A stretch of 64,000 nt of DNA from Vermamoeba vermiformis (lineage: Eukaryota), in NCBI GenBank assembly GCA_045837725.1, contig JBEWZL010000066.1:310001-374000 (forward strand), written 5' to 3'. Below, in pieces: positions 1 to 59,287 of this stretch. The position numbers and the translations under genes are program-made. The notes beneath the pieces are model-generated. The model was not told the DNA's origin, ran no database searches, and worked only from the letters and a program-made list of their open reading frames with translations. Within the stretch, counting starts at the first letter, position 1. Every line of letters begins with the position of its first letter.

Positions 1-1647
1 TGGATGAGCCAACGACGGGTCTAGATAGTGCCGCGGCGTATCAAATAATGACACTGATCAGTTCCACCGCGAAAAGCTTGAACATTGCAGGTATATTATT
101 ACACCTGAGTATCAGCACTACACTTAGCTAATCGCCAATAGTTCTGGCCACAATACACCAGCCCAGCGTACATACATTTGAGGTGTTCGATCAAGTGTTA
201 TTGCTCGCAAAAGTACGTAGCATCCATTTTCATCATTCAACTAAGCGACACCAGGGTCAAACAGTCTATTTCGGACCTACAAACAAGATGCAGGAGTACT
301 TTGAACACGACCTCAGAAAGCCACTGCCGAGGAATGTCAGTCCTCCAGACCATTATATCGACACTGTCAACACGGACTTTGACACCGTGTCAGATCTAGA
401 GCAGATCACGACCTATTGGGCGATGAACCGCGAGTTAAGCGTGCTCGATCAGATTGCTGAATTAGATCAAAGAGCGAGTGCGAGTGACACTAAAACACAA
501 CAAGCATTTCAATCCGATTTTGTATCGCAGGTACGTACTGTGTTTCCAAATAAGGAAGTTGCTGATTGTACGAACGATAGACGGGCTGGTTGGTCCACCG
601 CAGCATGAAGATTATTCAGCGAGACTACGTATCGTACATCATTCGCATTCTATCAGCGTCTGCAGGTGCAATACTGATGGGCAGTTTGTGGTACAAGTTG
701 CCGAATGACACCGATCACCTGCGCGGGTACTATGGAATCGCCTACAATGTAGCACTCATCAATGCGTTCTCGTTGATTGCCAGTATACCTGACAGTACGT
801 AGCAGATCGCATTCAGCTGAGAGATATTCTAACCAAGCTGCAGTGTTGACGGAGCGGATCCGATTCAGTCACGAGCACTCAAATGGCTACTATCGCGTGT
901 TTTCGTGGTTTCTCGCTGCGAATATAATGTCGTCTTTATATCTGTTGGTTGTCTCGCTGTGTTTTTCTGCCATTGCTTTCTTTATGGTACGACCAGTGAA
1001 TGTTCAGCCAGTGAAAAAACCAGGCAAATAACAATGTTATTTGCTCAGGTTGGTTTCACTGAGAGCGTTGAAAGATTCTTCATATTTGAAGCGATTGTCT
1101 TATTGCTCCTGCTGTGTGGTGAAGGTAAGAGAAGGGCGTAGTTTGTTATATTTGCTCACCAATTGTCCTAGCACTGCTGCAGATGATCAGTGTCCTCGTA
1201 CCTCTGTCGTCAATAGCCACAACACTTGGATTGGTCGTAGCAGGACTGTCAGGAGCACTGTCGGGAGTGTTCATCCGTGAGTCAATAGCTCAATTATAGT
1301 ACGTTGACTGACTTGCCATAGGGTTCAATAACATGCCCGTCTATTGGGTATGGGCTAAGTGGCTCAGTTTCTTTCACTACGGTGTCAATGCACTGATGCT
1401 CAATCAGTATCAAGGCACTGATGTGACGTGCATCCCTACAAAGCTACGCCCATGTCCTAACGTCAATGTCGATCAAGTGGCAGTTATCTCGGGAGATGAA
1501 TTGATCCGACAACTGGATCTGACTTTCACGGACATTGGTTATCCGCTGTATTGTCTCATCGCTTATTTTGTTGTGCACAAAACAATCACTTTGATTGCTC
1601 TCTGCGGTGTTACTAGGCAATCCCAAAATAAAAATAGCACAAAGTGA
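1..1647 (+). CDS. ABCG (White-like) transporter, 5'-truncated by the window edge, multi-exon
   Basis: The window opens in the Walker B/D-loop (L)DEPTTGLDS, followed by the H-loop TIHQPS and GQTVYFGP. ABC2 membrane segments follow (ERIRFSHEHSNGYY, MPVYWVWAKWLSFFHYGVNALMLNQY). Stop at 1645-1647. Confidence 0.9.
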
Positions 1648-44700: not shown

Positions 44701-47700
44701 TTAAATAGGAGGTGAACATTTCTACGAAGAACGAGACTGGCATGGGCGAGGCTACTATTAAGACTCCACGCTTGTTCAAGTTCAAGATCAACATTGACAA
44801 TGCCCCTGGAAAGGTAACGAAATTTTTCACGCCCATATAACCACGTGCTAACATGATTTGTAGTACTCTCGAACAAAGGTCGTGAAAGTTCATCCAGCAA
44901 TGATTCTCGTGAACAAGATTGATGAGCCGATCTTCTACCGTCAACGAGACTTCAATAACTACGTCTACCAGTTGTACCCTAATGATGAGGTCCCAATCTA
45001 TTGGTTCTACTCGAGCAATTCGGCCGCTCAGCGCTTGTCAATTTCGTTCTATAAGGACAACGCCAGCTTGAGCAGTTCACAGAAAATAGAAGATTTCTGG
45101 TCACTACCGTTCAGTCTGGACAAAGCTGACTTCTTCCAACTGAAACTGAAGCAAACATCAACTGATCCGAATAAGAAGTTTGTCATTAAGTTGATTAACG
45201 TGCAAGTCAAAGTGTTGCGTGAGACTACATTCGTGGTCTTCGAGAAGGCTGAAGAGCCGATCTATTTGATTGACAACCAGACTGACTCGACCTTCTACGT
45301 GCAACAGAAGGTATACTAAACATTGACCTTGTTTTAAGTACTCTTCTAACACAACCATAGGGCTGCAAATTGATCGAAGCCATCGAGCCTCGCAAGATCA
45401 CGCCGTACTGTTGGGAAGACCCGCAAAATGTCGCGCAGACTTCGAACTCGAACATTGAGCCCAAGAAGTTACTAGTCGCTGCGGCAGGTGCTCAGAAAGG
45501 AGGCATGATTGTCGAGCTTAACTTGGACAACCCGAGCGAGATGCCCGCGGTGCCTCTACCAGGGCCCGAGAAGCAGTCAGCACGCATTGATATCAAGCCT
45601 AATGGCGGACCTAAACGTGTTGTGACGATCTATTATAGCCACGCAAAGATGCGTCGAACCATTCCCATTCTCAACGAGACACTGCAAGTCACGTCTGAAT
45701 TGTCCGTGTCATTGCAAGGCATTGGCATTTCACTGATGAGCACGAACTTCTATCGCGATGAAACGTCAGACATTGCTGGCTACAACTCGAGCAGACGTCA
45801 AAAAGAAGTCATGTACATTAGTGCCCGTGGACTTAACTTCAAGCAGTACTCGACGAATAAGGACGTCTCTATTCTCGAATGCTTAATTGGAGCCTTCCAG
45901 GTACACTCAAACTACCCTCAATTTGACACGTGTCAAAATATCTCACAACCTCCATTTAGATTGATAACCAATTGGTACCAACAAAGTTGCCCGTTGCTAT
46001 TTCTAGTAACAGTACGCTGGTGTGGGAGAAGGGAAAAGAATTCTTGCAATTACGCATGCAACGCAGTCCCAAGTTCAACACGATAGACTTCCATTGCAAG
46101 TTGAACGAGTTCGAGCTGAAGATCGATCAGAACTTCTTGATTCAGATCTTAGCTTTCGTTGCATTTATTGTGACCTACTTCAGCAAGCGTTCAGCGGCGG
46201 TTGAAGAACGAAAACTGTTCGAGAAAATTTCACAGAGCATTCGTTCATTCCATAAGTACGTTCTCACTTCAAAAATGATTACTACACCTTGCTAATTAAT
46301 TAATAATACTTTTTAGGTTGACTTTAAACGATGTCACTTCCAACGTGTTCTATTTGGAAAATTTCTTCATTAATGAAATCAATACGCACATCACCTTCAG
46401 AAGCGAGGCCAATCCTGATTATGATCACAACTTGTAAGTCATCCATAAGCATAATATTGTCAATATGACCCTTATTAACTTGATTTTCACCACAGGGAGG
46501 GCTTTGAAGGCATTTTGCGCTGGATCCCGTTCGGTCTCTTGTCCGCAGCAAGCAATTTACCGATCAATCTCGAGCCATTCGCCACGAAACAGACGTTCTT
46601 GTTGCAACAAGAGCTCATTACGCGCATCGTAGACCATTACAAACGATGGCAGATGTATGTCAAACAAGTGTGGAACAAACTGGATCCGACAGTCGTTTCA
46701 AAGACCAACCCTTCACTCAACCTCTTCGTACGTACCTATTAATACTACCATAGCGATGATAATACTAATTCATTGACAGATGGATCAAGTCCAAGGTGTT
46801 GCTCCCGAGGTAGTTGGCGTGAGTCCAGCTCGTTTCCCGCGCTTCTTTGGCCCCGATCAATTGCTGTCCATCTACGAGGCCGAGAAGTCAGAGGGCCAGT
46901 ACCTAGTTTCAACAGTCAACGACGGTCAATATGCTGGCACGGAGTTCTACAACTTCCACTACCACGTGGTGAAGAACAAGTACATTATGTTAGCCACTAC
47001 CAAACTGCTGATGTTCATTCGACGCAAAGACGGTCAATGGTACTCTTATTGGGTCAAAGAACTGCTTGGTAAGCCATATCCTCGCCCACGTGATCTCGAT
47101 CCGGTCCTAACGTAAATTTCCTTTTTTAGAAGGTCGCGAGGAAAAAGTGAAAATTGTCAATATTAAGGCCCACAACGGCAAGTACTTGACCTGCGAGAGA
47201 ACTGGCGGAGTTTTCGCAAACAGATCTGCTGCTAGTGACTGGGAAGAGTGGCAGATCGAGAAACAGCCACAGCTCGGTGACAAAGTTGCGTTCAGAAGTT
47301 TCCACGGCAAGTACTTGAGCTCGGACACGTTCGGAGTTATGGCTGGCAAACCTGAAGCCAAGAAATGGGAAATTTGGAGAATTATCAAGCTACAGAACAA
47401 CCCTGGCAAGATCGCTATTGAGAGCTACGAGGTAAATTAATTTTCACTGAAACCTTTGATTTTTAACCAATCGTATTAAGTTCTTCTATTACTTAGCAAA
47501 AATACTTGACGTCGGAGAATATTCTCGGAATTAACAAAGTGAGCGCTAATCGATCGGCAATTAAGACCTGGGAAATGTGGGAAAGTCAAACAATTGTCAA
47601 ACTGGTCTTTGTTCGTAAGTACTCAAAAAGACTATACCCAGAATATATATGATAATAACACGACCTTATTTCAGCTTTGTCGAACTCGTACTTGATCCGT

Positions 47701-48441
47701 GAAAAATTGTTGCCGAACAAATTCATCGTGCAAATTACTGCAGGACTTGAGACCGGCAAGCCCTTAGCACTCGATAATCAAGGCAACATTTTGAAGTACG
47801 ACCGCACACAGTGGATCAAACACATTGGCCAGGCACGCTACATTACTTCCACGCAAGGCGCGTTCTTTATGCTCGAACAAAAGACCGGCTATTTGTATCA
47901 ATGGAAGAACGGCAATTGGCTCAAGAAAAATGCCAGTCAAGAAGTCGATAAAATCTACGCAGGATCAGAGAGCACATTGGTCGGAGTCAATTCCAAATTA
48001 GGAAAGCTCTATAGATGGCAAAATGAAGACTGGACGGAAGTGCCAAAGGGCTTTGAAGGCGATGTCAATTCAGCGGGCATTAACAGCAACGGTGACTTGT
48101 GGGTTGCGACTCGTGGTGGTCACGTGTTCAGATTCCAAGAATTAAGTGGCCAATGGACCTTCGTTCTTAACGTAAGTACCATTTCTAAATTAGGAAATTT
48201 TCAGTGAATTGTGGAACTCGTTCTAACAAATCTTTTTGTGTAGATCTTGGCGCATCAAGTATACGTTGCAGGAGAGACAGTTATTGCGGTGAATGAAGGC
48301 AACAGCAACAAATTGTACAAATACAACGGCAGCAATTATTGGGATGAAGTGGCGCAACAAACTAAGTCCTGCTGTGTGTCGCTCGACGGTGTAATCTACT
48401 TTGTGGATCAAGACGGCCAAGTGCTGCAATATCGTAAATAA
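35796..48441 (+). CDS. VPS13: VPS13-family bridge-like lipid transfer protein with C-terminal fascin-like and beta-propeller extensions
   Basis: Chorein N-terminus (LLNKYLGDYVE, IPWSSLSSKPV, HIRYED). Six VAB-like repeats with conserved Asn (VVKNQL, IFNHC, ILENLL, WIENRTG, ILVNKI, LIDNQT). PH-like region after RFPRFF. Confidence 0.92.
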
Positions 48442-48538: not shown

Positions 48539-51500
48539 TTAAGATCTCAATTCGTCATAAGCGAACTTGAGCTCGTGCAACAATGGTGCAGGGAATTCTT
48601 TGCCTAAAGTGCTGTAGTATCTCTTGATATCTTCGAATTCCTTAGTCCATTCATCAACATCAACCTGCAAGGCCTCATCAACGCTGCTTGTAGGCACATC
48701 AAGTCCACGCAAGTCGAGCACGGAGGACTCGGGAATCAAGCCGATAGCAGTCTTGTGCAAGCCCTCAGTGAGGGTGTTGGTGGTTCGTTCGTGAATGTAC
48801 TTCAAGATACGCGAGTTCTCGTCGAAACCAGGCCACAAGAAGTTACCCTTCTTGTCCTTTCTGAACCAGTTGACCACAAAGATCTTAGGCATGTTGTAAC
48901 CCAACTGCACTCTGAAGTCGAGCCAGTGTTGCAAGTAGTGGTTGATGTTGTAGCCGAGGAAAGGAGTCATTGAGAACGGTTCACGTTCAACGCCGTTCTT
49001 GCCTTCGACACCAATGACTGAGGCCAAGAAGACACCTTGTTCCCAGTTAGCAGCTTCAGTGACCAAGGGGAAGGCAGTGCTGCGACGGCAACCAAAGATG
49101 AAAGCAGAGATTGGCACACCGTTAGGGTTCTCCCATTCAGGATCAATCACAGGGCATTGAGCGCCAGGAGCAGTGAAGCGAGAGTTGGGGTGAGCAGCAG
49201 GGCGTCCGCAGTCAGGAGTCCACTTTTGACCAGTCCAATCGACCAAGGAAGCAGGAGGTTGTTCAGTCATGCCCTCCCACCAGACATCACCGTCGGGGGT
49301 AACAGCGACGTTGGTGAAGATGGTGTTCTTGCGCAAAGTGGCCATGGCAGACTTGTTGGTCTTGTCAGAGGTACCAGTAGCAACGTCGTAGAAGCCAGCC
49401 TCAGGGTTGATGGCCCAGAGTCTGCCGTCGTCGCCCAAGTGCAACCAAGCAATGTCGTCACCAACGCAACGAACGGTCCAACCAGGAATAGTCGGGACCA
49501 ACATGGCAAGATTGGTCTTACCACAGTTCTTGGGCAAAGCAGCACCGACGTAGATACGCTTGCCTTCAGGGGAAGTGATGCCCAAAATAGCGCAACGTTC
49601 AGCGAACCAACCCTGCTTCTTGCCCATGACAGAGGCAATGCGAACACCGAAGGAGATACGAGAGACAAGGGCGTTAGAACCGAAGCCACTGCCGTAAGAC
49701 ATGACGCTGTAGTTGTCAGTCTCGGTGTCAACAAAGTGAGCGATGACTCTGTTGTCAGGGTTGCAAGGCCAAACAACGTCCTTTCTGGCCAGACTCGAGA
49801 GGAGCACCAACCGAGTGGACGCAAGGCAAGAAGTATTGAGTGTCCTTCAACACGTTCAATACATCAGTGCCCATGCGAGTTTGGACGCGCATGTTGGCCA
49901 CAACGTAGGGCGAGTCAGTGATTTGAACACCGAATCGTGAGTATTGAGAGCCAAGAGGACCCATGCAGAATGGCATGATGTACATGGTACGGCCCTTCAT
50001 GCAGCCCTTGTAGAGGGTCATCATCTTCTCCTTCATCTCCTTAGGATCGGCCCAGTTGTTGACAGGACCAGCCTCCTCAGGAGTCTTGGTGCAGATGTAA
50101 GTGCTGGCGTCAGTGCGGGAAGTGTCGCGAGGATCAGTGCGAACAACGAAGCTGTTAGGTCTCAAGTCGTCGTTCAATCTGTTCATCGTGCCCTTCTCGA
50201 CCATCATGTCGCACAATTGGTCGTACTCTTCTTGTGAGCCAGTGCACCAGTGGACGTGATCGGGTTGCAAGAGAGCTTGCATTTCATCAACCCACTTGAC
50301 GAGCTTGTGGTTGCTAGTAGGAGCAGCAGTAGCAGCCAACAATCTAGCCTCGAGTTCGTCAACGTTGCTAGCGATGGCAGCAGGAAGTCTGGAGCCGAAC
50401 TTGGCGTAGAATTGACGAATATCGGGAATTTCGTCGAGCCACAACTTGGCGTCGACGTGCAAGAGCTTGTGAATGGTGTCCTTGCCAATTTCCAAACCAT
50501 CAACGTCCAAAGCGTCGTGAGTAGGAACGTAGCCGATAGGAGTAGCACGAGCCTTGCCAGTACCATCGACACGCTCGCAGATCCACTTCAAGACACGGCA
50601 GTTCTCGCCAAAACCAGGCCACAAGAACTTGCCCTTCTCTTTCTGGAACCAATTGACGTAGAAGATCTTAGGAGACAAGAAGCCCAAGTTCTTTCTGAAC
50701 TCAGTCCAATGAGCAAAGTAGTCTCCCATGTTGTAACCGCAGAAAGGCAACATCGCAAATGGATCACGACGGACTTGACCAAGCTTGCCTTCAGCAGCGG
50801 CTGTTTGTTCAGATGAGATGATTGAACCCATGAAGACACCTTGTTCCCAAATGAAGGCTTCAGTGACCAAAGGAACGACGCGTTCACGACGACCACCGAA
50901 CAAGATGGCGCAAATGGGGACACCATTAGCGTTCTCCCACTCAGGATCAATCACAGGGCATTGAGAAGCAGGGCAGGTGTAGCGAGAGTTGGGGTGAGCA
51001 GCAGGACGTCCGCAGTCAGGAGTCCACTTTTGACCAGTCCAGTCAATCAGCTCAGCAGGAGGTTGTTTAGTCATGCCTTCCCACCAGACATCACCGTCAG
51101 GAGTCAAACCGACGTTGGTGAAGATGGTGTTTCTGTTGATGGTTTGCATGGCAGAAGCGTTGGAGATGGAAGAGGTACCAGGAGCGACACCGAAGAAACC
51201 ATTCTCAGGGTTGATGGCGTACAATCTGCCGTCATCACCGACGTGTAACCAAGCAATATCGTCACCAACGCAGCGAACTGTCCAGCCAGGAAGTGTGGGC
51301 ACCAACATAGCAAGATTGGTCTTGCCACAAGCTGAAGGGAATGCGGCGGCGATGTAGTACTTGTTGCCTTGAGGAGAGGTCAAGCCCAAGATCAACATGT
51401 GCTCGGCCAACCAGCCTTCTTTTCGGCCCAAAGTAGAAGCGATACGCAAAGAGTAGCACTTCTTGCCGAGCAGAGCGTTACCACCATAGCCACTACCGAA

Positions 51501-54500
51501 CGACATTACTGTCGGGTCTTCAGGGAAGTGAGCGATGACAGTGTTGTCAGGATCGCAAGGCCATTGGACATCCTTCTCGCCAGCCTTGAGAGGCTTGCCG
51601 ACAGAGTGCAAGCAAGGCAAGAAGAACTTGCTTTCGTCCATAATGTTGAGGACCTTGATACCGATACGGGTCATGATCTTCATATTCACGACGACGTAAG
51701 GAGAGTCGGAGATCTCGACACCAAACTTGGAGTAAGGCGAACCGATGGGACCCATGCAGTAAGGAATGACGTACATCGTACGACCCTTCATGCATCCGTC
51801 GAACAACTTGTTCAAACGTTCCTTCATCTCCTTAGGATCAGCCCAGTTGTTGGTCGGTCCAGCGTCGTCCTTGTCCTTCGTGCAAATGAAGGTCTTGGAC
51901 TCGACACGAGCAACGTCGCGAGGATCAGAGCGAGCCAAGTAGCAGTTGGGCTTGTACTTGGGGTTGAGAGCAGTGAAGGTGCCTTGCTTGACCATCAAGT
52001 GGCACATTTCGTCGTACTCTTCTTCAGTACCAGTGCACCAGTGAACACGGTCAGGCTTGGTCATAGCACGAACTTGCTCGACCCATTCAATCAACTTCTT
52101 GTTGTTAGTTGGAGGTGGGTGTTCAGTACCGATCTTCAATCTCTTCTCCAACTCGAACATTTCTTGCATCAACGATTGAGGAATGCGAGTTCCGAAAGTA
52201 GCGTAGAAGTTGCGAATAGACTCAATTTCTTGCATCCATTCTTGGCATTCGACTTCAGTCAACTTGGCGAGGGCGGAGTCAGTGATATCCAAACCGCTAA
52301 CATCGAGAGAGTCGATAGTGGGCACGTGACCGATGGGAGTTCTGGTGCTCTTGGAAGTCGGGTTACGACCAATACGACCGCAGATCCATTTCAAGACACG
52401 GGAGTTTTCACCAAAGCCAGGCCACAAGAATTGACCGTTCTCGTCCTTTCTGAACCAGTTGACGTAGAAGATCTTAGGACTGTTGTAACCAGTGAATTTT
52501 CTGAAGTCCAACCAGTGCTTGAAGTAGTCTGCCATGTTGTAACCGCAGAAAGGCAACATCGCAAATGGATCACGACGAACTTGACCAAGCTTGCCTTCAG
52601 CAGCAGCTGTTTGTTCAGATGAGATGATTGAGCCCAAGAAAACACCGTGTTGCCAAGTGAAGGCTTCGAGAACGAGAGGAACCAAAGAGTTACGGCGACC
52701 TCCGAAGATGATTGCGGAGACAGGAACACCGTTGGGGTTCTCCCATTCAGGATCAATCACAGGGCATTGAGCAGCGGGAGTGGTGTAACGAGAGTTGGGG
52801 TGAGCAGCGGGGCGGCCACAGCCAGGAGTCCACTTTTGACCGGTCCAATCGATTAACTCAGCAGGAGGCTGCTTGGACATGCCTTCCCACCAGACATCAC
52901 CGTCAGGGGTCAAACCAACGTTGGTGAAGATAGTGTTCTTCTTGATGGTTCTCATAGCAGAGCTGTTGGTGTGTTCTGAAGTACCAGGAGCGACACCGAA
53001 GAAACCGTTCTCAGGGTTGATGGCACGGAGAGTACCATCGTTAGCGACGTGCAACCAAGCAATATCGTCACCAACGCAGCGAACTGTCCAACCAGGAAGT
53101 GTGGGCACCAACATAGCAAGATTGGTTTTGCCACAAGCTGAAGGGAATGCAGCGACGACGTAATGTTTAGCACCTTGAGGCGAAGTCAAGCCCAAGATCA
53201 ACATGTGTTCAGCCAACCAGCCTTCTTTTCGGCCCATAGTTGAGGCAATACGCAAAGAGTAACACTTCTTGCCGAGCAGAGCGTTACCACCATAGCCACT
53301 ACCGAATGACATAACTGAAGGTTCTTCAGGGAAGTGAGCAATGACAGTGTTGTCGGGGTTGCAAGGCCAAGAAACGTCTTGTTGTCCAGGTTGCAAAGGA
53401 GAGCCGACGGAGTGCAAGCAAGGCAAGAAAGCTTGATCACCCATGTAAGTCAAGACCTTGGTACCAATACGGGTCATGATCTTCATGTTCACGACGACAT
53501 AAGGAGAGTCGGAGATTTCGACACCATAGCGAGAGTAGGGAGAGCCAAGAGGACCCATGCAGTAAGGAATGACGTACATTGTACGACCCTTCATGCATCC
53601 GTCGAACAACTTGTTCAAACGTTCCTTCATTTCTTGCGGATCCATCCAGTTGTTGGTTGGTCCGGCGTCGTCCTTGGTCTTGGAGCAGATCCAAGTCTTG
53701 GACTCGACACGAGCAACGTCGCGAGGATCAGAGCGAGCCAAGTAACTGTTAGGTCTGAGTTGGTTGTTCAAAGGAATGAAAGTGCCTTGTTGAACCAAAA
53801 GCGAGCACATTTCGTCGTATTCAGCTTCAGTACCAGTGCACCAATAGACGCGATCCGGCTTGGTCATCTTGCGGACTTGATCGACCCAAGTAACCAAAGC
53901 CCTGTTGGTAGTGGGGACTTGGTCTTCATCCAAATGCAATAATTTGTCTTGTCTCTCCAATTGCTCGTAGAGAGCGGTAGGAACCTTGTGACCGAGAGTG
54001 GAAAAGAAGTTTTTGATTTGAGGAATCTTGCGCAAGAAGAGGTCTCTGTCGACATTGAAGAGCTTGGAAAGAGTATCCACGGAGACTGAAAGACCAGAGG
54101 TATCGAAAGAGCGGATGGTAGGGACGTAGCCAATGGAAGTTCTCTTCGCATCCACTTCACCGTCAATTCGACGGAAGACCCACTTGAAAATGCGCGAGTT
54201 CTCTCCGTAACCAGGCCACAAACGCTTGCCGTTGTCTTGTCTGAACCAGTTCACGACGAAAATCTTTGGGCTGCGAGAAAATACCAGTCGATTAATAACG
54301 CGTCGAAATTTCCGTGGATAGATAGTAAAAATTAGGTTAAAGAGACATACCTGCTGTAACCCAAGAACTCTCTAATCTTAAACCAATGCGAAATGTGGTC
54401 ACCAATGTTGATGCCAGTATAGTTTGACATAGCAAACGGATCTCGATGTTCAGGGACAGTTGTTCCCATAGCCTCGTGTTCATCGACAGCCAAGGTGGAG

Positions 54501-56559
54501 CCCCAGAAGACACCGTGCTTCCAGTTAAAAGCTTCGTATATTAAGGGGTACGTCTCTCTTCTGCGGACACCGAAAACGATGGCAGAAATGGGAACTCCGT
54601 TAGGGTTTTCCCACTCTGAATCAACGACGGGGCATTGAGCCATAGGGCACGTGTAGCGTGAGTTGGGGTGAGCAGCAGGACGACCGCAGTCAGGAGTCCA
54701 CTTTTGACCAGTCCAGTCAATAAGAAGTGGAGGAGGATTGCGTGTCATGCCCTCCCACCAAACGTCACCTTCAGGAGTCAAGGCGCAGTTAGTGAAGATA
54801 GTGTTTCGTTGAATGGTGTCCATAACACCTCTGTTGCTGTAATCGGAAGTGCCTGTATTACAGTAATTCAATTAGTTTTTGTGTGACGAATTCGAATTGT
54901 TGCAAAGTATTGACATACCAGTGGCAATGCCAAAGAAACCAGTCTGTGGGTTGACACCGTAAAGACGGCCGTCGTCACCAACGTTCAACCAAGCAATTTC
55001 AGTGCTGACGCAGCGTTGAGTCCAACCGGGCAAAGTAGGCACCAAGAATGACACGCTAGTTTGACCAGTACCGGCAGGCATGCAAGCGCAAACGTATTTC
55101 TTTTGTCCTTCGGGAGATTTCAAGGCAATGATCGACGAATGAGAAGCCAAAAACTTGGGATTTGACTTGGTCAAGGCAGATCCCATTCGTAAGTTGAGTG
55201 AACGACGAAGCAAAAATCCAAAAGCGGTACCGAAGCCCATCATGTGAGGAATAGGATCATCGGGGAAGTGCGCGAGCCAAACGTTGTCCGGGCTGCAAGG
55301 CCATGGGACGTCGCGTTGGCCGAAGTACAAAGGCATACCGACTGAGTGCAATGAAGGCATGAAAGGTTCATCTTCGCCCATAAGATCTAATACCTATCAT
55401 TTTATGCGTCAATAATTTTATCGGCGCAGTTTTACTGTCACGTTATGAAAATTATTCGGAACTTTTTGCCAGATTCATTCACTAAACAATTCAAAATTTC
55501 TAATATTGGAGTACTTACTCTAGTTCCAACGCGCGCTACTGTTCGTACGTTCATTACGACATAAGGTGAATCAGTAGCGATGACGCCAAACTTGCTCCAT
55601 TGAGATCCGAGTGGTCCCATGCAGAACGGAACAATATACATTGTTCTGCCTTGCATAGAGGCATGGAATAATTTTTCTAATTTAGCCTTCATCTCGTTAG
55701 GCTCCATCCAGTTATTCGTTGGGCCGGCATCTTCTTTGTTATTTGAGCAAATAAAAGTTCTCTCGTCGTACTTGCTGAGATCTCGCGGGTCTGTTCGAGC
55801 CAAGAAAGATCCTGGTCTTAATTTAGGATTGAGGCGAATAAATGTGCCATTCTCGACCATTTTGTTGCAGAGCGTATCTCCTTCTTCTTTGGATCCGGTG
55901 CACCAGTAGACCTGATCGGGCTCGCAAAGCTTTCTTACTTTCTCAACCCATGTGAGTAATTTTACGTGACTAGTAGGAGGTAGTTCCGATTTAGCCCTAT
56001 TGAGATCCGACATCCGTTAGTTTTATGCATCCAACCAAACACGGCGTTTTAATCAAGAATAATTGCTTGATACGTGACAATTTATTTACTGCTCAAAGTC
56101 TTAAAAAGGGACTTCCATAAATACCGTCCACGCGAAGTTTCTACTTGGCAATCTTTTCCACCCGAAGAAAATTATTTTAGGCCAAAATCCTTCGCAAATC
56201 CTATTTAATCAAGGGACGCTGGATCAGATCAAAAGATTTGCACCTTTCCGCGCAGATCCGCAGCGTTCTTGAATGGGACGGATTCGCGAGACGATAGGCC
56301 AAAAGTAACTTTGCAAGAAATTGAAACTTTCTTGAACAGAAAAATATGCCGAAGTAGGGTCACGTAATGGTATAAATGATCGTCTAATAAGTAAAAGAGG
56401 AACTGATTGAAAAATTTCGGATCAATTTTCGAAAACGGTAACTATTGTAAACAATTCCAATGAGCGCGATTGTGCTTACCCTTTGCTGGCCTGAGTACGC
56501 GGAGACACTGCCTCGGGCTGGGGGATATTTAAAGAGATAGTAACCTTTGGTTGGTCCAT
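48539..56559 (-). CDS. Giant GTP-dependent phosphoenolpyruvate carboxykinase with four tandem PEPCK units (about 2,400 aa)
   Basis: Exon 1 (56559-56480, [10 protein letters not shown]...) splices in phase to 55996. Three more introns follow, then one exon of about 5.7 kb. There are four copies of the HPNSR / NWF / WPG.GEN scaffold. Units 2 and 3 have [25 protein letters not shown] and VGDDIAW. One extra A near 49782. Confidence 0.92.
50320..53920 (-). repeat. Internal tandem duplication (period about 1.8 kb) between PEPCK units 2 and 3
   Basis: Identical nucleotide blocks include 51778-51827 = 53581-53630. Near-identical blocks lie at about 51254 vs 53060 and about 50727 vs 52533. Confidence 0.9.
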
Positions 56560-57195
56560 TTGTAGTAGTTACTTCTAGAATGTCAACCAGATTCGATGAA
56601 ACAAATCAACGAGCGATAACTAGACCAGTCGATGACTTGTTATGTTGTTCTATCGAAGAGGAATGTTAAAAACTAAACGTGGAGGTCAAAACTAAACAAT
56701 TGTTTACTGAAAACCGGAACTTTTCGTGAATTTCCAGACGTTTGATTTTTGCTTTGTGAAAGTTTTCGCTAACAAAAACGCAATATTTGGAACGGACGCA
56801 GTCCAGATCGTGTTTCAGTTGACACAACAGAGTTCAAGAATCCGCAATTATATCAAAGTTTACAATCACCCATGGATGCAGCAAGTTAGTAATGGTCACG
56901 TTAATCCAAGCTCAGACAACGTTCAGTTAAGTCCTAAGGGTGTCTCTTCGTCAAACAAGCGTGTGTATTCTCGTTTCACGAGAAGAATATTCCTAAGCCG
57001 TAAGTTGTAACGCGGGTGTTATTGATCAATAACTCGTGATCCAGATCGCAACGTTTAACACCTCCTTTACTAAAATTATATTTTTTTCCGAGTCCAGTGA
57101 ATGTCCTCCTGTGCATATCTGCAGTCGCCTTATTGATATTTGGGTTTAGAGACTCGTATCAATTTTTTTATTTATTTTCAAAAAATATATCGAAG

Positions 57196-59287
57196 ATGGA
57201 ACAACACACGAAGCTAACTACCGTAAGGTTTCGTGTCCATTGCGATACTAGATTAGGAGAGCACGTGCACGTAGTCGGAAACCGTCGAGAGCTCGGCAAC
57301 TGGCGACCTACTGCGGCTAATCAGCTCAAGTGGACAGAGCACTCTTGGTGGGAGTCCAAGATTCCTCTTGCGCCTGGAGAGCTCGAGTACAAATATGTTA
57401 TTACAGAAGACCATTCAAATATGGAGCTATTCGAGCAGGGAGATAATAGAACGGCTACTGTTCAAGGCTTAGATGAGGAGACAATCGTCGATGTCTGGAA
57501 CAAAAGAAAGCGTACAGCATCTGCTACATATGATTTCCCAACAACTAGTCAATTACGAGTAAGTAAAGGGTCTGTCGAGGAATATTTTTAAATTTACGCG
57601 GGTATTTTTTCGGATTTCTTGCACGGACTACAGAGGTCTTTGCATAAATTATTTTACCTAATTTTTGCGCAAATAAATTGATGCTCGAATTTTCTAGATT
57701 ATGAGTTTCAACATCCGCTATGACAATCCACATGACGGACCGTTTCAGTGGAAGCATCGTAAAGACAAGGTAAGGACAATTTTGCCGGATTATGAATGTA
57801 CTCATGTTAGTAGGTCGCGAGCATAGTGTCGTTTCATCATGCGGACGTTGCTGGCCTTCAAGAAGCTTTGAGCAATCAAGTAGATGTAAGTTGCACGTCA
57901 GCTGCGAAGGATCCAGAAGCTTGAGGACCCTTCGAGAGGTGTACTTTGGAACGACCTAGAGTTTTCGAATGCACGACGTGCTCTAGAACGGATCCACACC
58001 TTTCTCGAAGATTTTTCAGCTTCTAAACGTTCTGGATGCACCTTCGATTTCTAATTCGACGTTATTCTAGGACCTTGCTAAGGCATTCGGGAATCGGTAC
58101 AAGTATGTCGGCTGGGGTCGTGATGATGGAAGGCGGAACGGAGAATTCGCACCGATATTCTACAGAGCAGATCTGTTCGAGGCAAGTAACGGATCCGAAT
58201 CTCAGCAACAAGCGCTGTCAGATTACTACGCCACTCTATGTAGCAGTCACTTATTCTTTGCGGATAGGTCGAGGAGAGTGGGCTGTTCTGGCTTTCAACA
58301 ACGCCAGATAAGGTCGGATCGTTAAGTTGGCGCAGTTCTTTGCCACGCATCTGCACGTGGGCTCGATTCAAACACAAGTCTATTAAGTAAGTACCCTCAA
58401 ATAGTTAAAAAGCACCCTTTCCTGCGATATGTTCTGCAGATCGACCAAAAAAGCAAAAAAAGCAAAAAAGAAACGACCGCAGGCGGGAGTAACACCCGCA
58501 TCCACTCGCATTGCCAACCGGACAAGTTTGCACTTGAGTTGATGACCCCGAAGGGCCAGACGAGTGCTCTATTATTGAGCTACCACGGTCAAATGTGAAT
58601 TGGCTATTTTAGTCTTATGAGCTGCCTTACCAAATCTGCTGATTTTAATTGTGGGAACAAAATGGGTCTTTCGTAGCCGTCTAATAATCTTCCTTGCGCA
58701 TTTAATTCAATCAATTTAGTTTTCTGTGCCTTAAGCCTTAAATCTTTGTGCACCAAGAGAGATCTTACTAACCGAATTTGTGGATAGAACCGGATCTCCT
58801 TTCCTAGTCTTCAATACACACTTGGATCATATGTCGCAAGAGGCACGTTTAGAAGGCCTCAAGCTTATTCTATCGCGCATAACAACGTTGTCCATGGGCT
58901 TGCCAACGGTGCTGTTGGGCGATTTTAATTCGCCACCACGCGAAGGACTTGTGGACAAGATAACTCAAAGTAATGCTAAACAGTCGTGGGGTAAGTAATG
59001 TGCAAGTATTTTAAGCACTCGAGGAATTTTGTCGACCAAAACTTACATCTGATCCGGATTTGTCTCTAGGAATTCACCTCCAAGACGCTAAAGAGAAGAG
59101 TAAAAACCCGGCTCATGGACCTACTGCTACATTCATCGGATTTCAATTCGAGGCTAATGATTTGATCGATTACATTCTCGTCTCAGAGAATATTACAGTC
59201 GTAAATTACGGTGTACTGACGGATGTGTGGGACAACAACTTTCCACCGTCAGATCATCGCCCGATTGTTGCAGATATCACTTTTTAG
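57196..59287 (+). CDS. CBM20 starch/glycogen-binding domain + endonuclease/exonuclease/phosphatase (EEP) domain protein
   Basis: CBM20: VVGNRRELGNW, EYKYV, FEQGDNR. EEP: IMSFNIRYD, GLQE, GRDDG...GE, FNTHLDH, LLGDFN, IDYILV, PSDHRPI. Confidence 0.85.

Follow-up and report, generated by a model that had tools for sequence, protein, structure and literature searches.

PEPCK occupies the point where gluconeogenesis branches from the TCA cycle. The GTP-dependent enzyme, a single unit that is usually monomeric, is a monomer in textbooks as well. Chains of solved single-unit PEPCKs measure 605-626 residues (the structures compared in this work are 4wiu and 4r43 for Mycobacterium tuberculosis Pck, 2qew and 1khb for rat/human cytosolic PEPCK). 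A gene of Vermamoeba vermiformis, located in the window (the whole stretch of 64,000 nucleotides that was analysed), departs from this scheme, since its conceptual product has four units per chain, two of which are devoid of M1 ligand and lid. The other two, units 2 and 3, match single-unit GTP-PEPCK (EC 4.1.1.32) over the full length, and keep all 22 active-site positions. As an example, unit 2 matches 4wiu with 797 bits (residues 2-589). Among single-unit PEPCKs, the closest relatives are those of bacteria (64-66% identity).

Proteins in which a fold has been duplicated, and one dead copy keeps its ligand site and regulates, are known, among which the mammalian 100-kDa hexokinase I and the pseudokinase-kinase of JAK. 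These have other folds, and two units rather than four; in addition, a regulatory role was demonstrated there, but is only proposed here. Nuclear-encoded polyproteins occur in euglenids and dinoflagellates (LHC, RbcS, form II Rubisco), and consist of many tandem copies per mRNA, with repeated identical cleavage linkers and identical mature units. The V. vermiformis gene shares with them the presence of tandem copies on one mRNA, and a PEPCK with 8 units falls in one cluster with a fragment from a euglenid. Yet, each PEPCK linker is specific to its position, and the units at the two ends are degenerate. The purified Euglena PEPCK described in 1988 by Ponsgen-Schmidt et al. is reportedly an unusually large native enzyme.

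Three-unit PEPCK entries have been deposited for the chytrids Nowakowskiella (P0014) and Cladochytrium (P0016), for Porphyridium (P0019, P0021) and for MMETSP1172 (P0018). Their units are arranged head-to-tail, and joined by 'RLHF....PT.N' linkers similar to those of the family described below. Each of the 12 units of Nowakowskiella, Cladochytrium, Porphyridium purpureum and MMETSP1172 differs at 0-2 of the 22 positions, so that caps, as degenerate first and last units are labelled in this work, are missing; unit 1 of Porphyridium aerugineum, by contrast, differs at 9 positions. The group forms a separate clade (support 99 in the LG+G4 tree), which is sister to the capped family in the same tree (support 88) and not resolved in the C20 tree. 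These three-unit proteins are known from database annotation only, and no paper on them was found in the literature searched.

Organization of the gene and state of its active sites

The gene includes five exons and four GT-AG introns, all residing in the 5' part. Its features are the following.

48539..56559, minus strand: complete coding sequence of the four-unit PEPCK gene, ATG at 56559, stop at 48539-48541
56480..56559, minus strand: exon 1, N-terminal leader MDQPKV..., joint 55995>56479 in RNA contigs of X2, X8, X15
55997..56479, minus strand: intron 1, 483 nt, GT..AG, from RNA contigs
55519..55996, minus strand: exon 2, last part of the leader and first part of unit 1, from Pfam and exon model
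55394..55518, minus strand: intron 2, 125 nt, GT..AG, joint in X2, X8, X15
54919..55393, minus strand: exon 3, unit 1, from Pfam and exon model
54853..54918, minus strand: intron 3, 66 nt, GT..AG, with an in-frame stop inside, joint in X2, X8, X15
54351..54852, minus strand: exon 4, unit 1, from Pfam and exon model
54271..54350, minus strand: intron 4, 80 nt, GT..AG, joint in X2, X8
48539..54270, minus strand: exon 5, end of unit 1, complete units 2, 3 and 4, stop codon
53916..55977, minus strand: unit 1, N-terminal end unit (N-cap), residues 34-630, interrupted by introns 2-4
52113..53915, minus strand: unit 2, canonical GTP-PEPCK, residues 631-1231, 22/22 positions kept
50322..52112, minus strand: unit 3, canonical GTP-PEPCK, residues 1232-1828, 22/22 positions kept
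48542..50321, minus strand: unit 4, C-terminal end unit (C-cap), residues 1829-2421
49782..49784, minus strand: AAA run (CAG AAA G GAC) with one base in excess, frame shift inside unit 4

The ORF at 49755-54254 (minus strand, 1499 aa) spans all three unit junctions in frame, and contains [25 protein letters not shown] and [11 protein letters not shown] at residues 106, 706 and 1305. PEPCK_N and PEPCK_GTP were found three times by Pfam in this ORF (E = 2.3e-272 and E = 0), the remainder of unit 4 in 48539-49783 matches PEPCK_GTP (1.3e-140), and the three upstream exon ORFs of unit 1 score 5.2e-57, 2.4e-26 and 1.3e-60, values so extreme that chance matches are of no concern. All four units qualify as GTP-dependent PEPCKs (PF17297 and PF00821; N-terminal and C-terminal P-loop domain). 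The first-pass annotation had described four complete tandem units in one gene, with the U1/U2, U2/U3 and U3/U4 junctions inside the 1499-codon ORF, and both the Pfam scan (PEPCK_N plus PEPCK_GTP, four times) and the translation of the ORF agree; its unit borders fall within about 15 bases of the refined ones, and its end coordinate is the ATG at 56559. Neither the introns splitting the N-terminal leader and unit 1 nor the break of the frame in unit 4 had been mentioned. Linkers between units are 8-12 residues long. Leaving out one base of the AAA run gives a conceptual product of 2421 aa (271.3 kDa). Over 2417 aa, it aligns without gaps and at 95.6% identity with the product of a relative (P0123, 2419 aa), which is coded on a 7.4-kb contig. 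A single 2413-aa ORF is carried by the 7412-nt contig L001, and the region of exon 5 is one 1915-aa ORF in the genomic contig L002 of the relative.

In spliced RNA contigs, each of the four introns shows up as a GT..AG joint; no contig of the DNA run X1 has any of these joints. RNA contigs cross the U1/U2 (X2, X8), U2/U3 (X2, X8, X15) and U3/U4 (X2, X8) junctions, each being bridged by spliced contigs of two or three studies, and no single read or contig in the sequencing runs examined covers the entire gene. The locus is a single transcribed region, from which four introns are spliced out, and all junctions are in frame. That it is one gene, and not a set of adjacent paralogues, had been proposed in the initial annotation, and is borne out by the junction-bridging RNA contigs and the gap-free 2419-aa product of the relative. 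Low-depth bins were also noticed over intron 1 (56156-56432) in RNA runs; they are compatible with splicing, and were not counted as evidence alone.

Active-site residues are numbered as in rat PEPCK. In PMC4370629, equivalents of the M1 manganese ligands are named, and the Phe triad is shown to be essential; roles of M1 ligands, P-loop, Phe triad and loops are assigned following this source and PMC12529880. The M1 ligands Lys244, His264 and Asp311 are complete in units 2 and 3, and incomplete in unit 1 (Lys244Arg, Asp311Glu) and unit 4 (Lys244Ile, His264Arg). The P-loop Gly-Lys-Thr and the M2 ligands Thr291/Asp310 are present in units 2, 3 and 4 (CGKTN, DD), and replaced in unit 1 (TGQTS, TE). 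Similarly, the guanine pocket (Trp516, Phe517, Phe525, Phe530, Asn533) reads WFFFN in units 2, 3 and 4, and WFRYN in unit 1. The omega-loop lid segment measures 30 residues and includes the T-AAA-EG motif in units 2 and 3, is 29 residues long and lacks the motif in unit 1, and is 7 residues shorter (23) in unit 4. Altogether, 11 of the 22 active-site positions are altered in unit 1, including Lys244Arg, Lys290Gln (P-loop) and Asp310Thr/Asp311Glu, and 5 in unit 4 (Tyr235Phe, Lys243Arg, Lys244Ile, His264Arg, Ser286Lys), which retains P-loop, Asp310/Asp311, Arg405, Arg436 and guanine pocket. The scores of units 1 to 4 against a bacterial-PEPCK profile are 778, 1069, 1055 and 865.

The predicted chain is thus laid out as degenerate end unit, canonical, canonical, degenerate end unit, which matches the mixed architecture postulated at first. 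The packing of the four units as a covalent pseudo-tetramer, and a regulatory role of the degenerate ones, which the first-pass annotation had likewise put forward, are possible. Judging from the residues kept, units 2 and 3 would be working GTP-dependent PEPCKs, interconverting oxaloacetate and PEP. Units 1 and 4 are predicted to be unable to run the standard PEPCK reaction, because both lack the M1 ligand Lys244 and the omega-loop lid motif, and because the P-loop lysine and both aspartates are also gone in unit 1, and His264 in unit 4.

Distribution and conservation of capped tandem PEPCKs

The V. vermiformis gene is a family member, not a one-off. We propose to call capped tandem PEPCKs the proteins in which end units without Lys244 flank at least one canonical unit. 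This organization was found in the window protein, in 9 four-unit proteins and in the 8-unit P0271. Four-unit members come from Echinamoeba, Cavostelium, Phalansterium, a Schistocerca record and metagenome clusters, and orthologues with four units are present in all three amoebozoan phyla looked up. Among the matches listed, 9 cluster representatives have 2344-2454 aa, and 3-unit and 8-unit forms also occur in databases; a search of proteins >2624 aa turned up mixed multi-enzyme fusions, and no additional representative of multi-unit PEPCKs. The 8-unit P0271 has been seen only as member of a cluster, together with a fragment of the euglenid Eutreptiella. How many catalytic units the caps enclose differs by lineage, with 2 here and 6 in the form clustering with the euglenid fragment. 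Three-unit cap-middle-cap forms of Arcella and Soliformovum come from Trinity assemblies, and could be collapsed repeats, as hinted by a 1806-base joint in run X1. The organization had not been recognised as described in the first-pass annotation. This holds for print, as no description of a four-unit capped PEPCK was found in the literature searched, but not for sequence databases, where such proteins are common.

Conservation was monitored in 12 capped proteins (nine four-unit, two three-unit, one eight-unit), which provide 26 middle units and 24 caps. In middle units, 21 of the 22 active-site positions are kept in every unit, and Phe525 in 24/26. Lys244 is present in 26/26 middle units, and in none of the 12 N-caps and 12 C-caps, where its replacements vary (R, I, T, S, A, D). 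The lid segment has 30 residues in 24/26 middle units, and its T-AAA-EG motif, seen in all 7 middle-unit sequences inspected, is missing from all caps. The segment is not shortened by 6-7 residues in 7/12 N-caps and 4/12 C-caps. Residues lost vary from cap to cap, and since lid lengths vary too, caps may possibly have a new activity in some lineages. Gly-Lys-Thr, Asp310, Arg405, Phe517 and Asn533 are each conserved in 12/12 C-caps, His264 in 3/12. Profile scores follow a low-high-high-low pattern in every complete four-unit protein examined, and linker sequences are conserved by position in Tubulinea and Evosea. Caps fall in one clade in both trees (support 99 with LG+G4, 96 with C20); a single N-cap clade is not rejected (p-AU 0.325).

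Alternatives to the proposed single chain with inactive ends

The 271-kDa product may be a true polyprotein, a precursor cut at the linkers, from which two active PEPCKs and two PEPCK-like proteins of ~67 kDa each would be released. Linkers are indeed short and conserved by position, and the clustering of the 8-unit form with the Eutreptiella fragment fits as well, euglenids being known for polyproteins. The outcome of the packing prediction is also compatible with cleavage. In the AlphaFold2 model of units 2 and 3 obtained from 75 aligned sequences, where all single-unit rows lie on the unit 3 half and the unit 2 half has only 24 multi-unit rows, both units are folded (pLDDT 91.1, pTM 0.59, linker pLDDT 66), and neither a confident relative placement of the units nor a defined packing was obtained at this pTM; with 12 aligned sequences, pLDDT was 37.9 and pTM 0.26. 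Yet, the three linkers differ by junction, each being conserved across species, and no one cleavage motif is repeated. Moreover, the 'PT.N' following each linker corresponds to the usual N-terminus of bacterial single-unit PEPCKs, which begin with MT(S/N)N, and no targeting signal is evident by eye. Stoichiometric co-production would not be a reason to keep dead units at fixed ends. Processing into separate proteins seems, on balance, unlikely.

Alternatively, end units may be neofunctionalised enzymes, in which the GTP site and the Arg87/Arg405 site serve another reaction or metal chemistry. P-loop, Asp310/Asp311, Arg405, Arg436 and guanine pocket are kept in 11-12 of the 12 C-caps, Arg87 is retained in 24/24 caps, and the listed variants in unit 4 are all synonymous (15/15), which denotes strong selection. 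The caps are nonetheless not uniform, as would be expected of a new active site: Lys244 has been lost in all 24 and variously replaced, His264 is kept only in 9/24, and lids vary in both length and sequence. Neofunctionalisation of the end units is quite improbable.

The 1499-codon ORF ends inside unit 4 in the window as given, and the remaining 414 codons are in another frame. Should the frameshift be real in the source strain, a ~2010-aa product would end in the N-terminal domain of unit 4, and unit 4 would be decaying. The window sequence itself carries the extra base, followed by TGA at 49755-49757. However, the base is missing at 49780/49782 in 4/4 sequencing runs examined, at full depth, including a DNA run in which 147/213 pieces are ≥99% alike, and in contig L002 of the relative. 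No other disabling change was found in the 414 downstream codons, and the 11 listed unit 4 variants residing there are all synonymous in the restored frame, as are 36 of the 38 listed in the whole coding region. Single-base deletions were also found in X1 at the non-coding positions 56042 and 56563, as indel errors would produce them. An error of this assembly, flagged here, is the probable cause of the break, and genuine decay of unit 4 is very unlikely. There is hardly any chance that the array results from mis-assembly, or that neighbouring paralogues have been taken for one gene. Units 2 and 3 are indeed mixed up by short-read assemblers, as one X1 DNA contig joins 51174 to 52981, skipping 1806 bases, but pairwise identity among units is only 52-78%, independent RNA contigs bridge the junctions, and the identical four-unit order is seen again in the 9 representatives listed, as well as in genomic contigs of up to 465 kb.

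Possible meaning of the end units

Taken as a whole, the V. vermiformis gene is probably the orthologue of a conserved amoebozoan capped-PEPCK gene, encoding one ~2420-aa (271 kDa) polypeptide with four GTP-PEPCK folds. How the caps act is more speculative. They may be non-catalytic modules, retained in a chain that stays uncut. The C-cap, which has an intact nucleotide pocket, might bind GTP or GDP, and tune or stabilise the catalytic units, and the N-cap would be mainly structural. In a broader and tentative reading, which we regard as possible at best, cap-(catalytic)n-cap PEPCKs would be obligate single-chain assemblies of an enzyme found elsewhere as a monomer, whose pseudo-PEPCK end units act as sensors (of GTP/GDP, for the C-cap), setting activity or direction of the central enzymes at the PEP-oxaloacetate node. 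They would be as old as the last common ancestor of Amoebozoa, or older, and would be shared with euglenids, the catalytic number being tuned by lineage.

For annotators, the rule is that long protist PEPCK models are real, and not to be split. Legionella and giant viruses are commonly hosted by Vermamoeba, whose core metabolism is therefore of practical interest. If the interpretation is correct, pseudoenzyme domains evolved by internal duplication would have in these proteins a clean natural case, and the conserved chain of 271 kDa, in which two units are live and two dead, would represent a new way of regulating or building a central enzyme of metabolism.

Gene model and reading frame

The minus strand carries four PEPCK units between 48539 and 56559. 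The 1499-aa ORF reported in the first-pass annotation was found at 49755-54254 (-), and the three linkers quoted there are present in its translation, at ORF residues 106, 706 and 1305. In the Pfam scan, meant to reveal four units, PEPCK_N and PEPCK_GTP were each detected three times within this ORF; the remainder of the fourth unit lies at 48539-49783, and the first is spread over three upstream ORFs. Exons were derived by reading the DNA and locating splice sites.

Exons and introns of the PEPCK gene (DNA reading and splice sites)
56559-56480, minus strand, exon 1
55996-55519, minus strand, exon 2
55393-54919, minus strand, exon 3
54852-54351, minus strand, exon 4
54270-48539, minus strand, exon 5
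Introns 1-4, minus strand, GT..AG, of 483, 125, 66 and 80 nt

Introns are confined to the leader and unit 1. Units 2, 3 and 4 reside in the last exon, as do all three junctions, which fall inside the 1499-aa ORF as originally proposed. The conceptual product measures 2421 aa (271.3 kDa). The adjoining ORF (57040-57591, +) contains a CBM_20 starch-binding domain (E = 2.2e-17), a carbohydrate-binding protein neighbouring the gene of a gluconeogenic enzyme. ORFs just downstream of the PEPCK gene (47659-48441, +) gave a weak Tectonin match (E = 0.0025; 17.7 bits, under the curated cut-off of 30).

In the window, one surplus base in CAG AAA G GAC ends the long ORF within unit 4, and the other 414 codons of the unit run on in a different frame. 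An assembly error most likely explains the break. Once a base is skipped, the product is 95.6% identical, with no gaps over 2417 residues, to P0123, a 2419-aa protein of a relative encoded by a 7.4 kb contig. One base is absent at 49780/49782, at full depth, in all four runs compared with the window, obtained in four studies (one DNA, two RNA-derived because spliced, one recorded as RNA), and L002, a relative's genomic contig with 84.5% DNA identity across the gene, has one base fewer at the site, its last-exon ORF extending to 1915 aa. Among the listed coding variants between runs and window 36 of 38 are synonymous; in unit 4 all 15 are, 11 of them downstream of the break. The DNA run X1 also misses one base at 56042 (intron 1) and one at 56563 (just upstream of the ATG), both non-coding, which, along with the deletion at 49782, is suggestive of single-base insertion errors at various places in the assembly. 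That the break is a private, recent mutation of this strain, and the truncation real, is very improbable.

RNA contigs contain a GT..AG-ended joint for each of the four introns, three of them in runs X2, X8 and X15, one in X2 and X8; none was seen in the DNA run X1. The U1/U2 boundary is bridged by contigs of X2 and X8, U2/U3 by contigs of X2, X8 and X15, and the U3/U4 junction together with the frameshift site by contigs of X2 and X8; no contig of the runs compared with the window covers the entire gene. L001 is a metagenome contig of 7412 nt with one intronless ORF of 2413 aa; P0123 matches this locus at 73% identity in the best segment. The cluster members P0123, P0128 and P0133 (2419-2430 aa) derive from contigs of 7404-7509 nt, lengths that suit the predicted mRNA after splicing. 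Mis-assembly of the four-unit gene can practically be discarded. One X1 contig joins 51174 to 52981, skipping 1806 bases, roughly the length of a unit (side 72, 26 shared letters), probably because units 2 and 3 were collapsed in the assembly of short reads. Likewise, collapse of four-unit transcripts may account for the three-unit Trinity forms of Arcella and Soliformovum.

Active sites and putative roles of the units

On a profile of ten bacterial single-unit PEPCKs, units 1-4 of the window score 778, 1069, 1055 and 865. The low-high-high-low order recurs in every complete four-unit protein, and in the eight-unit protein P0271 six high scores are enclosed by two low ones. For each unit 22 active-site positions were tabulated, in the numbering of rat PEPCK. 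Units 2 and 3 retain 22 of 22. Unit 1 carries 11 changes (Tyr235Phe, Lys243Arg, Lys244Arg, Ser286Ala, Cys288Thr, Lys290Gln, Asn292Ser, Asp310Thr, Asp311Glu, Phe525Arg, Phe530Tyr), unit 4 five (Tyr235Phe, Lys243Arg, Lys244Ile, His264Arg, Ser286Lys). The assignments of the metal ligands, the P-loop, the Phe triad and the loops were checked against PMC4370629 and PMC12529880. Four PEPCK folds share one frame, with two active sites intact and two not.

In 12 proteins capped by degenerate end units, Lys244 is present in all 26 middle units, in none of the 12 first and in none of the 12 last. Last units keep the Gly-Lys-Thr P-loop, Asp310, Arg405, Arg436, Phe517 and Asn533 (12/12 each), and only three keep His264. 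The lid-bearing segment measures 30 residues in 24 of the 26 middle units, and is shortened by 6-7 residues in 5/12 first and 8/12 last units; the T-AAA-EG lid motif occurs in 7/7 middle units printed, and is absent from 24/24 end units. PEPCK needs both its M1 metal site and its lid for catalysis; for this reason units 1 and 4 are predicted to be unable to catalyse the reaction. Judging from sequence, units 2 and 3 would catalyse the normal one. The role of the lid is dealt with in PMC12529880. Identity to orthologues is 44-59% for end units versus 67-81% for middle units, and the former evolve faster, still under purifying selection.

Hexokinase I and pseudokinase tandems are models for the roles of the caps. 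Possibly, the chain would stay whole, the C-cap (unit 4) would act as a sensor or stabiliser by binding guanine nucleotide, and the N-cap (unit 1) would be structural. In AlphaFold2 predictions both middle units fold well, and the pTM of 0.59 and low linker confidence speak neither for nor against a fixed packing. It is rather unlikely that the product is a polyprotein destined to cleavage. Neofunctionalisation of the caps is improbable.

Descent and distribution

In an LG+G4 tree of 103 units, those of capped proteins are monophyletic (98) and divide into a clade of caps (99) and one of middle units (84). The corresponding values are 99, 96 and 98 in an LG+C20 PMSF tree of 70 units, which omits mg9, mg15, mg17, mg31, mg35, four of the eight P0271 units, Cladochytrium, Porphyridium aerugineum and several single-unit rows. 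In the latter tree, first (100) and last units (99) of Tubulinea are distinct clades with the same order of species; for the family as a whole, monophyly of first units is not recovered, nor is it rejected (p-AU 0.325). The first (LH.xEDQP-PT.N), second (xxE(V/I)xP-PT.N) and third (AA(T/Q)(A/D)A-PT.N) linker signatures are common to different phyla, and such position-specific conservation speaks for an ancestral four-unit order. As PT.N is the usual N-terminus of bacterial PEPCKs, true linkers span merely 8-12 residues or so. The closest single-unit sequences are bacterial (64-66% identity).

The closest relatives fall in a cluster at 90% identity which contains a EukProt sequence labelled Vermamoeba vermiformis. 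Four-unit proteins occur in Echinamoeba (2399 aa), Cavostelium (2400 aa), Phalansterium (2395 aa) and several metagenome clusters, partial multi-unit forms in Thecamoeba, Pyxidicula, Arcella, Soliformovum and Paradermamoeba; the labelled species belong to Tubulinea, Evosea and Discosea. Separate three-unit PEPCKs are found in two chytrids, two Porphyridium species and one MMETSP sample. The ENA protein P0271 (4821 aa) shares a cluster with a fragment from Eutreptiella gymnastica. It has one degenerate unit per end and six canonical ones, the latter with identical linkers in repeated pairs (units 4/6, 5/7), as if a block of two units had been amplified. A capped four-unit protein of 2434 aa is filed under Schistocerca gregaria (NCBI, P0010/P0146, LOC126325537); in the unit trees it falls within Tubulinea, beside a metagenome cluster and Echinamoeba, and may come from an insect-associated amoeba, or from transfer.

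Other fusions and novelty

Five two-unit metagenome PEPCKs (P0028, P0030, P0031, P0034, P0035) branch outside the capped family in both trees. Their first unit is degenerate (8-9 of 22 positions changed, Lys244 retained), the second canonical. In P0278-P0284 (3052-4177 aa) PEPCK domains are combined with triose-phosphate isomerase, phosphofructokinase and aldolase, isocitrate lyase and malate synthase, or PEP-utilising domains; these are giant fusions of several enzymes or, alternatively, gene models that were merged. Many bacterial PEPCKs of 830-1110 aa are fused to aminotransferase (PF00155), alpha/beta hydrolase (PF12697/PF00561) or GAPDH domains (PF00044/PF02800, actinobacterial names). 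Evidently, PEPCK often serves as a fusion partner.

No description of tandem or multi-unit PEPCKs was found in a full-text literature search whose reach left out most subscription journals, and database entries carry generic names. A description elsewhere in the literature is possible. The PEPCK family is textbook knowledge; what appears undescribed is the conserved capped multi-unit layout.
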